Part shown: positions 8,765 to 29,334 of the stretch, in pieces
Layout: each line of letters starts with the position of its first letter
How positions within the stretch are numbered: the stretch's first letter is position 1
DNA from: Leptonemataceae bacterium
GTDB taxonomy: Bacteria; Spirochaetota; Leptospiria; Leptospirales; Leptonemataceae
Direction: 5' to 3'
DNA: 64,000 bases
NCBI GenBank assembly: GCA_965227295.1
Contig: OZ245742.1
Span: forward strand, 2,976,001-3,040,000
The notes under the pieces: generated by a model
The model's input: only the letters and a program-made list of their open reading frames with translations
What the model was told of the DNA's origin: nothing
The model's database searches: none
Translations under genes and position numbers: made by a program

Positions 8765-10656
8765 GCCGAGTCACAAAGCGACGTCCGGGTCGAACGCAGC
8801 GTTCTCAGCAAAACGAAACCCCACAACTCCCGCTCAACCGTAGCCAAAAAAGGCCTTTCACGGTTGCGCAATGTACTTCATGTTTCTCGCCGCAACCGTT
8901 ACGAATCGCGACTCTTGAACTACCGGAAACGTTTTATTTGTTCGATTACGCCCCGAATCATGAAGTAAGTGGCGGCCAGTGTACATTAAGACTTGTATGG
9001 TCACGGCTGGTTCCAGGCGACCACGGAGGTCATGTCGGGGAAATGTGGGGCGCGCACCGGAACGGCGTCTTCGCCGGAAGAATCGTCGCCGGGAACAGAG
9101 TCACAAACCAACGTCCGGGTCGAACGCAGCGTTCTCAGCAAAACGAATCACCACAACGTTTCTGAAGGCGGACATGTCCCGGCCTATCCCTCAATCTCGC
9201 CGAAGCGAGATTGAGGCTCCCGCTCAGCTGTAGCAAAAAAGTCCCTTCAACAATGCGCAACTTGCCTTGTGTGTCTCACGGCAAACGCCGCGAAACACGG
9301 CTCTTGAACTACCGGAAACGCGGGGGTAGCTCGCACACGCTCTGAATCGTTGCGTAAGTAGCGGCCAGTGTACATTAAGAAGATTATGGGTACGGCTGGT
9401 TCCAACTGACGCGCGGAGGTCATGCCGGGGAAATGTGGGGTGCGCACCGGAACGGCGTCTTCGTCGTCGGAGACGCTGCGTTAGCTGAGTCACAAACCGA
9501 CGTCCGGGTCGAACGCAGCATTCTTTGCAAAACGAAAATCCACAACTCCCGCTCAGCCGTAGCCATAAAAGCCCTTCACACATACGGCGACTTACTTTAT
9601 GTTTATCATGGCAATCGCAACGAACTGCAGCTCTTGAACTACCGGAAACGCTCGGGTAATTCGCACACGCCCCGAGTCGTTGTGTAAGTGGCGGCCAGTG
9701 TACATTAAGAAGAATATGGGTACGGCTGGTTCCAGCAGATGAACGGAGGTCATGCCGGGGAATGTGGTACTGCGCACCGGCAGAATTCTCGCTTCGGCGA
9801 GAGTTCTGAACCGCCGGCTTTCCGCATCAGCGGAAAGCATAGGTCCCCGGCGTCTTCGTCGTAGGAAACTCTGCGATAACTGAGTCGCAAACCCGCGTCC
9901 GGGTCGAACGCAGTATTCTCAGCAAAACGAATTACCACAACTCCCGCAAAGCTGTAGCCATAAAAACTCCTTCACCATTGCGCAACTCACCTTCTGTTTT
10001 TCACGGCCAACGCGGCGAGACACAGCTCTTGAACTACCGGAAACGTTTTATTCGTTCGAATACGCCCCGAATCGTGGTGTAAGTGCAGGCCAGTTTGAAT
10101 TAACACTTTTTTGGGTACGGCTGGTTCCAGCTGACGCGCGGAGGTCAAGCCGGGGAATGTGGCAAGGCGGACCGGAACGGCGTCTTCGCCGGAAGAATCG
10201 TCGCCGGGAACAGAGTCGCAAACCAACGTCCGGGTCGAACGCAGCGTTCTTTGCAAAACGAAAATCCACAACGTTTCTGAAGGCGGACATGTCCCGGCCT
10301 ATCCCTCAATCTCGCCGAAGCGAGATTGAGGCTCCCGCAAAGCTGTAGCAAAAATTTCCACTCCTCCATTTCGCAACTTACTTCATCTTTCTCACGGCGA
10401 ACGTGACGAACCGCAGCTCTTGAGCTACCGGAAACGCTCGGGTAGTTCGAATACGCCCCGAATCGTGGTGTAAGTAGCGGCCAGTGTACATTAAGACTTT
10501 CTTGAGTACAGCTGGTTCCAGCTGACGTGCGGAGGTGATGCCGCGGAGATGTGGGGCGCGCACCGGAACGGCGTCTTCATCTCGGAAAATCCATCAAGCG
10601 CAGGCGCGCTCCGGAGCCCCGCTCTATTCGCGGGGCGGAGCGGGTGCGCCTTTGCG
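8765..10656 (+). repeat. Tandem array 1 of a ~330-bp repeat (5 units starting 8768, 9098, 9487, 9882, 10213), some with inserted hairpin modules
   Basis: Recurring blocks CGTCCGGGTCGA, CCACAACTCCCG, CTCTTGAACTACCGGAAACG, GCGGCCAGTGTACATTAA, GGCTGGTTCCA and ACCGGAACGGCGTCTTC at 330-395 bp spacing. Confidence 0.95.
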
Positions 10657-12180
10657 GTCGCGCAAAATCGTCAAACTGATCAACGCCGCCGCGACGGCCA
10701 CCAGCGTGCAGAGCACCGCCACCGCGCGCATGCCGCTGACAAAGGCTTCGCGACTGAGAGTTAGCAGCGCCGCGCCCGATTCCCCCGGCAACGCTCGCGC
10801 CACGGCCACGGCGGCACCGAGAGTATCCTGCGCTTCGGCGACACTCGCCGCCGGCAGATGTGCAATCGCCTCGCCGGTAAACGCACGCCGATAGAACGCG
10901 ACGCCGATGCTGCCGAGAATTGAAATGCCCAGCGCACCGCCGAGTTCGCTCGCGGTCTCGGCCATGCCCGAAGCGACGCCGGACTGCTCCGGCGGCGCCG
11001 CACCGACGATCATCTCCGTCGTGAGACCGAAGACCGGTGCGAGACCGAACGAGATGATGATCGATGCGGCCACGACGGCGAAGAGACCTTCGCGGTTGCC
11101 GACGTTCGAAAGGATGATGAGACCGATCGCCGCGAGAAACAACGAACCGCCGATGACGTGCGCCGGGTTCGCTTTGTATAAAACGCGCGGGAGTAGATTC
11201 GATGCGGCGATGAACGCTACCGCCGACGGCACCGACCACAGCCCCGCCATGAGCGGCGTGAGGTCGAGCACGAGCTGGAGATACTGCGCCACAAACAGAA
11301 AGTAACCGAAAGCTAAGAACACACCGAGCACGTTCACGATGAGCGAAGCACGCAGCGCCGGAATGCGAAAGAGCTTGAGATCGATGAGCGGATCGGCAAG
11401 ACGGAACTGCCGCCGCGCGAAGACGTAGCCGAAGATGAGGCCGATCACGAGCGCAGCGAGCGGCACGAGGGCGAAGCCGTTCTGTGCCGTTTCTTTGAGG
11501 CTGTACACGATCGGCAGAATGCAGAGCAACGAAAGCACGACGCTCGGCGCATCGATGCGCCCGGCCTTTGCGTCGCGGTACTCCGGCAAGACGAACGGCC
11601 CGAGCAGCAAGAGTAGCATCATCACCGGCACGGCCAGCAGAAAGACGGCGCCCCACCAGAAGTGCGCGAGCACCAATCCGCCGAGCACCGGACCGAGACC
11701 GCTGCCCGCGGAGAACGCCGAGATCCACACGGCAATCGCCACGCCGCGTTCGCGCGGATCGGGAAACATGTTAAAGATTAACGACAACGTCGACGGCGCG
11801 AGCGTCGCACCGGCTATGCCGAGCAACGCGCGACTGACGATTAACATCGTCGCCGTCGTTGACAACGCCGCGAGAATCGACAACAACCCGAAGATCGCCG
11901 AACCGATGAGCAACAGGCGCCGCCGTCCGAGTCGATCGCCGAGCGAGCCCATGGTAATCAAGAAACCCGCGACCATGAAGCCGTAGATGTCGATGATCCA
12001 CAACAACTGTGCGCCGGTGGGTTTCAGGTCCGCACTGAGCGCCGGCACCGCGAGATGCAGCACGGTGATGTCCATGACGTAGACGACGCAGGCGATCGCG
12101 AGCACGGCGAGGCCGAGCCATTCGCGAACCGTGGCTTTGCGGGGGGCGGGGAAATCCAGGCTGTCTGCGGGAGCGGCCAC
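10624..12180 (-). CDS. MFS drug:H+ antiporter, DHA2 (14-TMS, SmvA/QacA-like)
   Basis: DITVLHLAVP, QLLWIIDIY, motif A GSLGDRLGRRRLL and LGPVLGG; about 14 hydrophobic segments. Confidence 0.9.
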   Translation of the reverse strand: MAAPADSLDFPAPRKATVREWLGLAVLAIACVVYVMDITVLHLAVPALSADLKPTGAQLLWIIDIYGFMVAGFLITMGSLGDRLGRRRLLLIGSAIFGLLSILAALSTTATMLIVSRALLGIAGATLAPSTLSLIFNMFPDPRERGVAIAVWISAFSAGSGLGPVLGGLVLAHFWWGAVFLLAVPVMMLLLLLGPFVLPEYRDAKAGRIDAPSVVLSLLCILPIVYSLKETAQNGFALVPLAALVIGLIFGYVFARRQFRLADPLIDLKLFRIPALRASLIVNVLGVFLAFGYFLFVAQYLQLVLDLTPLMAGLWSVPSAVAFIAASNLLPRVLYKANPAHVIGGSLFLAAIGLIILSNVGNREGLFAVVAASIIISFGLAPVFGLTTEMIVGAAPPEQSGVASGMAETASELGGALGISILGSIGVAFYRRAFTGEAIAHLPAASVAEAQDTLGAAVAVARALPGESGAALLTLSREAFVSGMRAVAVLCTLVAVAAALISLTILRDRKGAPAPPRE

Positions 12181-12253
12181 AAAGAGTCACTGCGGGCGCG
12201 GGCGGGCGGGAGGCAACCACTTAAAATCCGTTGCGAACCGCGGCTCTGGAATC

Positions 12254-28260: not shown

Positions 28261-28354
28261 GCCCCGGACTTACACGTCGTCGCGCCGGGGATGATCCGGT
28301 AAACCGAATCCGCTGCGGCTGCGGAGTAAGTAACGTTCGGTTTGAATTAATCCT

Positions 28355-29334
28355 TGTCGCCCCGAATTGTGAAGTAAGTCGCGGCCAGTGTTTATTAATA
28401 CTTTTTTGGTCACGGCTGGTTCCAGCTGACGAGCGGAGGTCATGTCGGGGATCGTGGTAAGGCGGACCGGCAGAATTCTCGCTTCGGCGAGAGTTCTGAA
28501 CCGCCGGCTTTCCGCATCAGCGGAAAGCATAATTCCTCGGCGTCTTTTTTTCGGAAAAGCCATCAAGCGAAGGCGCACTCCGGAGCCCCGCTCTATCCGC
28601 GGGGCGGAGCGAGTGCGCCTTCGCGCCCGGCGGACCGGAACGGCGTCTTCGTCGTAAGAAACGGCAGGGGGGCTGAGCCGCAAACCAGCGTCCGGGTCGA
28701 GGCGGACTATCGTAGCAAAACGACATACCACAACTCCGAAGAGCCGTAACCAAAAAATTCCCTTCACAATTCCGCGACTAACTTCATGTTTCTCACGGCA
28801 ACGATCACGAACCGCAGCTCTTGAGGTACCGGCAACGCTCAGGTGATTCGCAAATGCCCCGAATCGTGAAGTAAGTTGCGGCCAGTGTACATTAAGCCTT
28901 TTTTGGTCGCGGCTGGTTCCAGCAGACGAGCGGAGGTCATGTCGGGGAGCATGGTAAGGCGGACCGGCAGAATTCTCGCTTCGGCGAGAGTTCTGAACCG
29001 CCGGCTTTCCGCATCAGCGGAAAGCATAATTCCTCGGCGTCTTTGTTTCGGAAAAGCCAGCAAGCGAAGGCGCACTCCGGAGCCCCGCTCTATCCGCGGG
29101 GCGGAGCGAGTGCGCCTTCGCGCCCGGCGGACCGGAACGGCGTCTTCGCCGTAAGAAACGGCAGGGGGGCTGAGCCGCAAACCAGCGTCCGGGTCGAGGC
29201 GGACTATCGTAGCAAAACGACATACCACAACTCCGAAGAGCCGTAACCAAAAAATTCCCTTCACAATTCCGCGACTAACTTCATGTTTCTCACGGCAACG
29301 ATCACGAACCGCAGCTCTTGAGCTACCGGCAACG
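28355..29334 (+). repeat. Tandem array 3: two ~497-bp units (330-bp repeat plus two hairpin modules)
   Basis: GCCCCGAAT at 28359 and 28856 (period 497); same conserved blocks as arrays 1 and 2. Confidence 0.95.

Follow-up and report, generated by a model that had tools for sequence, protein, structure and literature searches.

Arrays in which conserved repeats are separated by variable ones are known from Neisseria as NIME arrays. In the account given in PMC1797815, these arrays carry opportunistic insertions, serve as the target of a phage recombinase, and were proposed to promote the exchange of adjacent genes; the same account describes NIMEs as not seen outside Neisseria. Here, we analyzed a 64,000-nucleotide stretch of DNA from a Leptonemataceae bacterium (contig OZ245742.1, positions 2,976,001 to 3,040,000; the window), in which a repeat unit of about 330 bp forms three arrays between genes. 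A preliminary description of this family had offered a structured noncoding RNA (ncRNA) array, a nonautonomous mobile repeat, or a protein-binding or recombination platform as possible explanations. We tentatively prefer, with somewhat less than even confidence, the reading that the units are a lineage-restricted, NIME-like intergenic mosaic tandem repeat acting mainly as DNA, as a platform for recombination and integration. The positive evidence was wholly at the DNA level (integration, insertion, mosaicism, and the bracketing of acquired genes), and this reading was therefore ranked first.

Judging from the published account, the NIME array would be the nearest described analogue, by likeness of behavior and not by membership. 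Both kinds of array are intergenic, alternate conserved and variable sequence, carry insertions of other repeats, offer a conserved element as an integration site, and lie beside variable genes. However, the whole 330-bp unit is homologous here, with at least 12 conserved blocks, and is arranged strictly head to tail in one orientation, whereas NIMEs, as described, join one 20-bp inverted repeat with more than 100 unrelated RS families in a host of another phylum. The dRS3 motif (ATTCCC-N8-GGGAAT) was not found in the arrays, and a single match with two mismatches occurred elsewhere in the window, compared with 2.47 expected.

ERICs are about 127 bp long, usually solitary, and found in either orientation, and BIMEs are built of 20- to 40-bp REPs. 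Like the present units, these elements are noncoding imperfect palindromes that are mosaic, lie in intergenic positions by stop codons, and have size variants due to insertions at fixed sites. The units here, however, are 330 bp long and tandem, and array 2 (defined below) had no blastn match (word size 11) in 20,395 Escherichia coli records covering 5,426 genomes. The long direct repeats LDR and SIB/QUAD of E. coli were first seen as noncoding repeats as well. They share with this family a unit of a few hundred base pairs, a tandem and multilocus arrangement, lineage specificity, and conserved and variable blocks. In contrast to them, the family showed no conserved small hydrophobic open reading frame (ORF), no promoter-terminator pair per unit, no covariation, and no E. 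coli or Rfam match. Among ORFs of at least 12 amino acids, none began and ended at the same columns in more than 7 of the 11 units, and the candidates (12 to 84 amino acids) were not hydrophobic; type I toxin-antitoxin long direct repeats were rejected on these grounds. A CRISPR array was rejected as well, in agreement with the earlier remark that the units differ from CRISPR repeats: CRISPR consists of short, identical repeats of 23 to 50 bp with unrelated spacers, whereas this 330-bp unit is homologous along its full length (71 to 92% identity). The sole CRISPR row in the Rfam scan lay inside a gene for a major facilitator superfamily (MFS) transporter, at an E value of 1.1.

Three head-to-tail arrays of one repeat unit

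Array 1 (8765-10580, + strand) starts 15 nt past a glycoside-hydrolase stop codon and consists of five head-to-tail units on the + strand, namely, U1 (8765-9094), U2 (9095-9483), U3 (9484-9878), U4 (9879-10209), and U5 (10210-10580). Array 2 (12250-13216, + strand) contains one 5'-truncated unit, two full units (12489-12818 and 12819-13148), and 68 nt from the start of a fourth, which is interrupted by an island. It continues at 25920-26077 (+ strand) with the right copy of an 11-bp repeat (25920-25930) and then the remainder of the cut unit, ending GTAAGT; an extra unit fragment of 45 nt lies at 26080-26125. Array 3 (28266-29336, + strand), located between fliY and fliO, is made up of a degenerate piece with an internal deletion (28266-28358), a partial unit (28359-28671), a full unit (28672-29168) that holds an insertion (insertion 2) and a long hairpin, both described below, and another partial unit (29169-29336). 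All arrays share one orientation, which is also that of the flanking + strand genes, and two of them begin no more than 15 nt after an upstream stop codon.

The presence of tandem arrays, as first noted in the preliminary description, was confirmed by Tandem Repeats Finder, a repeat-family search, anchor searches, and a profile hidden Markov model (HMM). Tandem Repeats Finder reported 12254-13216 (period 329, 2.9 copies, 94% matches) and 28359-29334 (period 497, 2.0 copies, 97% matches); the array at 8.77 to 10.6 kb, whose units are just 74 to 81% alike and carry insertions, was not detected. In the repeat-family search of the window, a 268-nt repeat was present in 9 copies and repeats of 39 and 33 nt in 11 copies, at the places where arrays had been described. 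With the unit HMM, built from the 8 full units, 15 matches were obtained on the + strand at an E value of ≤1e-3, every one within the arrays (8 full units, 5 partial units, and 2 duplicates of 34 nt). The single match on the - strand was weak (E value, 5.5e-4) and reflects the self-complementarity of the unit, not a real copy.

The conserved blocks named earlier were verified by motif counts. The CGTCCGGGTCGA block and the GCTGGTTCCA block each occurred 10 times on the + strand, and CTCTTGA[AG][CG]TACCGG occurred 11 times; all copies lay within the arrays, and none was found on the - strand. The two-block pattern GGCCAGT-N5-TTAA-N16-GCTGGTTCCA gave 10 matches, compared with 0.00 expected from 100 shuffles. 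Array 1 had anchor spacings of 330, 389, 395, and 331, array 2 had two spacings of 330, and the one spacing in array 3 was 497. Thus, the period of 329 to 331 bp reported before held for most spacings (330 to 331 in 4 of 7), and the remaining spacings of 389, 395, and 497 are lengthened by insertions of 59, 65, and 167 nt, respectively. The third array likewise proved real, but its start had been placed too late, at 28.36 kb, since the degenerate piece at about 28266-28358 precedes that point.

An integrative island in a repeat unit

An integrative island uses a repeat unit of array 2 as its attB site. The island (13217-25919, + strand; 12,703 bp) is bordered by the 11-bp direct repeat CACAACTCCCG, whose left copy, the attL core (13206-13216, + strand), lies within the conserved unit block CCACAACTCCCG and whose right copy, also on the + strand, opens the continuation of the array. 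The CACAACTCCCG block is present once in every unit, and the island duplicates it at both ends. The unit cut at 13216 resumes at 25920 (HMM positions 1 to 71 and 57 to 215). At both island ends, inverted repeats of about 16 nt surround TCCC, the crossover, as in a recombinase core site; the ends resemble the unit in the 11-bp core only. The first gene of the island (13255-14298), which begins 39 nt in, encodes a tyrosine integrase. Its homologues among 5.8 billion proteins were itself and only one other protein, which was 50% identical.

A tyrosine-integrase island bounded by a short direct repeat of conserved noncoding sequence, with the integrase gene proximal, is also the arrangement found at tRNA and tmRNA attB sites. 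Here, however, no tRNA or tmRNA was found in the window (ARAGORN), the cut unit is not restored, and the target is one of many paralogues. The arrays resemble integron attC arrays in their common orientation, imperfect palindromes, nearby tyrosine recombinase, and weak hit to an integron-integrase model. In contrast to attC arrays, RYYYAAC and GTTRRRY cores were present in just 1 of the 8 full units, and the units are homologous throughout and carry no cassettes. The integron-integrase model TIGR02249 scored the island integrase at 25.9 bits (E value, 5.6e-6) against a cutoff of 265, and the integron reading was rejected on the core sites and this score. The best model for the integrase was a generic Xer-type recombinase, which likewise fell below its cutoff.

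The array boundaries fell at differing unit phases, with starts near core-alignment columns 285 and 50 plus one degenerate start and with ends near columns 265, 163, and 122. Such ragged ends would be as expected from unequal recombination and deletion, whereas a transposing element would leave precise ends. These boundaries bear on the alternative that the unit is a nonautonomous mobile element, either like a MITE (a miniature transposable element with inverted repeats) or a mini-circle multiplied by a recombinase, that copies itself into new intergenic sites and beside itself and thereby forms tandem arrays. Copies exist in at least three places in the window and at least one elsewhere in the genome and are absent from the relatives fetched; the arrays begin just past stop codons; 16-nt inverted repeats, 142 nt apart in the unit, could pass for terminal inverted repeats; and the integrase core sequence occurs once in every unit. 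However, MITEs have terminal inverted repeats with a target-site duplication at precise bounds, and the arrays and units of the window do not have this arrangement: no target-site duplication was found beside any array or unit, and array ends differ in unit phase. In addition, no transposase was found nearby, the likeness of the island ends to the unit stops at the 11-bp core, and head-to-tail arrays of whole units are unlike usual MITEs. From the earlier suggestion of a nonautonomous mobile repeat, dispersal to other loci stands, but the arbitrary phases of the array ends do not fit, and we consider a mobile element decidedly unlikely.

Small insertions in the units

Insertion 1 (9158-9218, + strand), a hairpin-forming segment of 59 to 61 nt, lies between CCACAAC and TCCCGC of U2, and an identical copy is present in U5 (10273-10333). 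Insertion 2 (9781-9846, + strand; 65 nt) forms two hairpins and follows ACCGG of U3, with copies at 28471-28531 and 28968-29028. The two insertions contain the same 16-nt hairpin top in opposite orientations, that is, as reverse complements. Outside the arrays, a long perfect palindrome at 44860-44910 has at its top TCTCGC-CGAA-GCGAGA, a third copy of this hairpin top, and is probably a REP-like element of the host genome. Since the hairpin top is found in both insertions and in the distant palindrome, the insertions represent REP-like palindromes inserted into units. Among 13-mers common to the arrays and the rest of the window, sense or antisense, only the REP-like hairpin at 44880 and six single chance matches at five other sites were found.

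At the end of array 1, a long hairpin module (10582-10664) extends over the final codons of the MFS gene on the - strand (stop codon at 10624-10626) and looks like the terminator of that gene on this strand. Copies of it lie within array 3 (28545-28640 and 29046-29137), where there is no - strand gene to terminate. The period of 497 in array 3 consists of the unit with insertion 2 plus the approximately 100-nt long hairpin with a duplicated flank.

Block-wise constraint and exchange among units

In pairwise comparisons, the 8 full units were 71 to 92% identical, and 166 of 330 core columns were invariant. The invariant columns formed 60 runs, compared with 83.1 ± 4.6 by permutation, and included 7 runs of at least seven columns, compared with 1.27 expected; none of 5,000 permutations reached either value. 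The longest conserved blocks were CGTCCGGGTCGA, ACGGCGTCTTC, and GCTGGTTCCA. Because the invariant columns cluster into blocks although the units are no more alike than this, some constraint is acting, and the units are under block-wise constraint.

The units are also recombination mosaics of one another. Units V1 and V4 were 93 to 100% alike in the last 90 columns and 57 to 77% alike elsewhere, and V6 and V7 were 97 to 100% alike except in columns 105 to 135 (63 to 73%). This 30-column block occurs as two discrete alleles that have been exchanged among arrays.

Conserved blocks of this kind might be recognized by one or more DNA-binding proteins (a regulator, a nucleoid protein, or a partition protein, for example), in which case the arrays would be loading platforms and recombination a side effect. 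Consistent with this possibility, primary sequence is conserved in short blocks with variable spacers and is strand symmetric, and ACCGGAA occurs twice per unit, with a near reverse complement in the CGTCCGGGTCGA block. However, no candidate protein is encoded beside the arrays, no known operator or parS-like palindrome was recognizable, and a position between unrelated genes gives no regulatory logic. Protein loading as the main role appears very unlikely.

A gene-gain locus between the hydrolase gene and fliY

The locus was compared with 80 related loci (1.36 Mb), which were fetched via FliY and whose best hits were all metagenome-assembled genomes (MAGs). The closest FliY hits (loci L001, L002, and L003) were 52 to 54% identical by tblastn and 53 to 56% identical in the table of FliY hits. 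FliY would place the window among deep Leptospirales-like spirochaetes, and a TIGR04388 match in the island agrees with this placement. In these three relatives, 107, 156, and 491 nt lie between the end of the hydrolase homologue and fliY. By contrast, the glycoside hydrolase gene of the window (melibiase/GH31-like; 6501-8750, + strand), the left neighbor of array 1, is separated from the fliY/fliN-type flagellar switch gene used as the query (27184-28260, + strand) by 18,433 nt (8751-27183). This gap contains arrays 1 and 2, with the MFS gene between them and the island interrupting array 2, followed by the unit remnant and a SEC-C gene. The MFS gene (10624-12180, - strand) encodes a DHA2-type efflux transporter and is enclosed by arrays 1 and 2. 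Similarly, fliO closely follows fliY in L005, L012, L013, and L016, whereas here a gap of 1,202 nt before the fliO-like gene (29463-30434, + strand) is filled by array 3. From this gene order, the hydrolase-fliY locus appears to be a hot spot of gene gain.

No nhmmer hit to the repeat family at an E value of ≤10 was obtained in the 80 related loci, and the three closest relatives contained no comparable tandem repeats.

Arrays as a possible platform for recombination and integration

In the preferred reading, short conserved blocks split by exchangeable variable blocks would provide long dispersed homology, and at least one site in the unit would be used by a site-specific recombinase. The arrays might then be landing pads and substrates of recombination, and genes and islands would be acquired, relocated, and perhaps lost by way of them. 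The role of the arrays as integration and recombination sites has been partly demonstrated here; a raised rate of recombination at the arrays, protein binding at other blocks, and growth of the arrays by unequal crossing-over are what we infer beyond it. The recombination platform proposed in the preliminary description is thus supported by the island in a conserved block, the hairpin insertions, the mosaic units, and the inserted genes bracketed by arrays.

Several points weigh against this reading. Just one integration event was observed. Many invariant blocks go unexplained, and a recombination substrate is not obviously in need of them; protein binding at the other blocks, at least 10 in number, is presumed. 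The polarity of the insertions rests on three distant relatives, all MAGs, and the age and dynamics of the family are not measurable because the relatives fetched hold no trace of it. The orientation of the arrays with the flanking + strand genes, together with two starts no more than 15 nt past stop codons, would also fit a cotranscribed RNA, and the RNA-structure tests described below drew on 12 related paralogues from one genome, which limits their power.

If the arrays truly promote site-specific and homologous exchange, they would add a second, unrelated case, from a spirochaete lineage that has been poorly sampled, to the idea of an array serving as a recombination platform, which has so far been argued mostly for Neisseria. 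The platform would also account for the 18-kb block of foreign genes that splits a conserved gene pair. A bolder extension is that this deep-branching, GC-rich, Leptospirales-like spirochaete has in the arrays a dedicated system for gene capture and gene shuffling, with the function that NIME arrays or integrons have elsewhere but invented independently. The dozen conserved blocks would then bind recombinases and accessory proteins or else form the scaffold of a large RNA of a new kind that guides these proteins, and islands, efflux genes, and small palindromes would be slotted between units. We regard this extension as speculative and unlikely.

RNA structure of the units

The principal alternative is that every unit encodes the whole or a part of a structured ncRNA of about 250 to 330 nt on the + strand, transcribed from its own promoter or by readthrough from the gene upstream. 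In that case, the arrays would be a multicopy ncRNA gene family, which the island uses as attB in the way that integrases use tRNA and tmRNA genes. Small RNA genes are frequent integrase targets, and block-wise conservation is typical of RNA genes. Such a family would explain the invariant blocks, the orientation shared with the flanking + strand genes, and the array starts just past stop codons. If the units were RNA genes, they would form a new class of large ncRNA with an unusual multicopy organization.

Some structural features of the units point in this direction. Inverted repeats are nested in every unit; those of the reference unit comprise 16-nt arms (94% complementary), 21-nt arms (76%), and a central hairpin. 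When the 8 units were folded with RNAalifold over the 330 core columns, a long branched hairpin with 89 pairs was obtained (-119.8 kcal/mol), in which 89.3% of 842 cells were paired; the raw 560-column alignment gave just 22 invariant pairs. The central loop has the sequence CG-GAAA-CG, varied to GCAA in array 3, and both insertions 1 and 2 are located in predicted loops rather than in helices.

However, further tests did not favor a conserved fold. The - strand alignment folded equally well (-119.0 versus -119.8). The proportion of paired cells was close to that obtained with shuffled partners (88.8 ± 0.3%; 31 of 500 shuffles were as high), and six pairs were altered on both sides, compared with 4.9 expected (166 of 500 shuffles were as high). 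Of the 89 pairs, 34 departed into nonpairs only, and no stacked covarying helix emerged when all columns were scanned against one another. Folding energies were ordinary, the minimum free energy z-scores being -1.95 and +0.31 for the + strand and -1.80 and -1.51 for the - strand. A by-eye argument that G·U wobbles favor the + strand was overturned by a count over the 61 pairs common to the optima of both strands, in which 22 wobble cells were G·U valid on the + strand and 15 on the - strand (13 versus 14 pairs).

Signals for transcription of single units gave a similar picture. No recurrent promoter per unit was found: sigma-70-like sites numbered 3 compared with 1.7 ± 1.6 expected and 1 compared with 1.5 ± 1.1 expected, in a lineage whose promoters are uncharacterized. 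Nothing convincing was seen for sigma-28, sigma-54, or extracytoplasmic function (ECF) promoter motifs in a by-eye search only. A terminator scan of the - strand showed a weak G-T-rich hairpin followed by TCGTTTT, and no convincing terminator per unit was found. A CsrA sponge was also rejected: a by-eye count gave 7 GGA per unit, compared with about 6 expected from composition, and the rsmX row scored 16.6 bits against a gathering score of 56.

The RNA nature of the units is thus unproven, and the evidence leans against a conserved fold. The earlier proposal of a structured ncRNA array found no support in covariation, which was no better than in shuffles, in folding z-scores, or in a wobble asymmetry between strands, and the Rfam search reported below gave no match. 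The ncRNA reading, weakened by these results, is possible but doubtful.

Noncoding nature of the units

The units are noncoding. In the codon-position test, variable columns were spread over the three codon phases as 61/54/49 (chi-square P = 0.51), the power at period 3 ranked 62nd among 166 frequencies of the variability spectrum, and the ratio of nonsynonymous to synonymous polymorphism (pN/pS) was 0.84 to 1.08 across all six frames. The lack of 3-periodicity and a pN/pS near 1 in every frame agree with the noncoding character first assigned to the units. The accompanying statement that no reading frame stays open across them needs qualification: no frame is retained between units, but single units can be open in one frame, as at 9884-10348 (+ strand, 154 amino acids) and 9224-9826 (- strand, 200 amino acids).

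Alternation of conserved and variable blocks in a spirochaete brings to mind coding cassettes, belonging to a repetitive protein gene, that have decayed or are silent, for example, donors of antigenic variation such as the vls arrays of Borrelia, and one + frame is indeed open over about 80 codons in several units. However, vls-like silent cassettes have a kept frame, indels in threes, and an expression-site homologue, none of which was found here. Besides the codon-position results, indels of 1, 59, 65, and 167 nt among the units speak against cassettes. A - frame translation of the unit searched against 5.8 billion proteins yielded no match at an E value of ≤0.001 among five word-sharing candidates. 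When a profile of the most open + frame was run against 1.84 billion representative proteins, five rows came back. Two of these, P0004 (E value, 9e-32) and P0005 (E value, 1e-12), are translations of further repeat copies, neither being an expression-site protein, and the other three are unrelated low-complexity proteins. In P0004 (178 amino acids), the same DNA block is read in two frames within one ORF (residues 1 to 13 and 107 to 120), which can arise only from noncoding repeats with a period that is not a multiple of three. The coding-cassette explanation is therefore close to refuted, and we give it hardly any credence.

Further copies and searches for known families

P0004 is encoded on the same 5,938,550-bp contig, outside the window, and is at most 75% identical to any translated copy from the window. 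P0005 represents another repeat copy that is not encoded in the window, and the array end there falls near column 85. P0004 is deposited in public records (ncbi and ena) as a hypothetical protein; the repeat family is thus being annotated as hypothetical proteins, which causes annotation errors.

No match to the repeat family was found in any library searched. With Rfam 15 (4,227 models), nothing reached the gathering score in the whole window. At an E value of ≤10 over 8600-13400 and 25800-29500, only 11 chance-level rows were returned, the best within a unit scoring 18.9 bits against a gathering score of 45, which bears out the initial impression that the units belong to no described family. 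The Rfam scans contained no ribozyme rows (hammerhead, twister, or others), and self-cleaving ribozyme satellites were rejected on that basis; a CUGANGA-like string is present in some units only, within a variable block. The exact two-block DNA pattern did not occur in 185,579 species genomes, a collection without the source genome, and blastn of array 2 against plasmids and phages gave no match.

Neighboring genes

Apart from the integrase gene, the island carries a gene for an 1,843-amino-acid protein (17199-22730) with a TIGR04388 N-terminal region and a pretoxin-HINT domain, directly followed by a small ORF, and a gene for a helix-turn-helix (HTH) protein (24071-24556). About nine ORFs of the island had no family match. 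In our own reading, which is not a tool result, the 1,843-amino-acid protein resembles a polymorphic toxin.

Between the unit remnant and fliY, the gene at 26214-26942 (+ strand) encodes a protein with a SEC-C motif at its end. The longest ORF there is a rival of 352 codons (26106-27164, - strand), which had no family match and an Arg/Gly/Ala-rich translation; for these reasons, the SEC-C gene is likely the real one.

Between array 3 and fliO, a sigma-70-like site, TTGACG-16-CATAAT, is present at 29427-29454, with 10 of 12 positions matching. This site suggests that fliO may be transcribed on its own, now that array 3 parts it from fliY. A TauE/SafE-type membrane protein gene (30447-31232) follows fliO in place of fliP, and the flagellar export cluster is thus not contiguous here. 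Near the left end of the window, the gene at 279-6371 encodes a 2,030-amino-acid protein with an N-terminal Ser/Thr kinase and a C-terminal histidine-kinase/CheA-like ATPase region.

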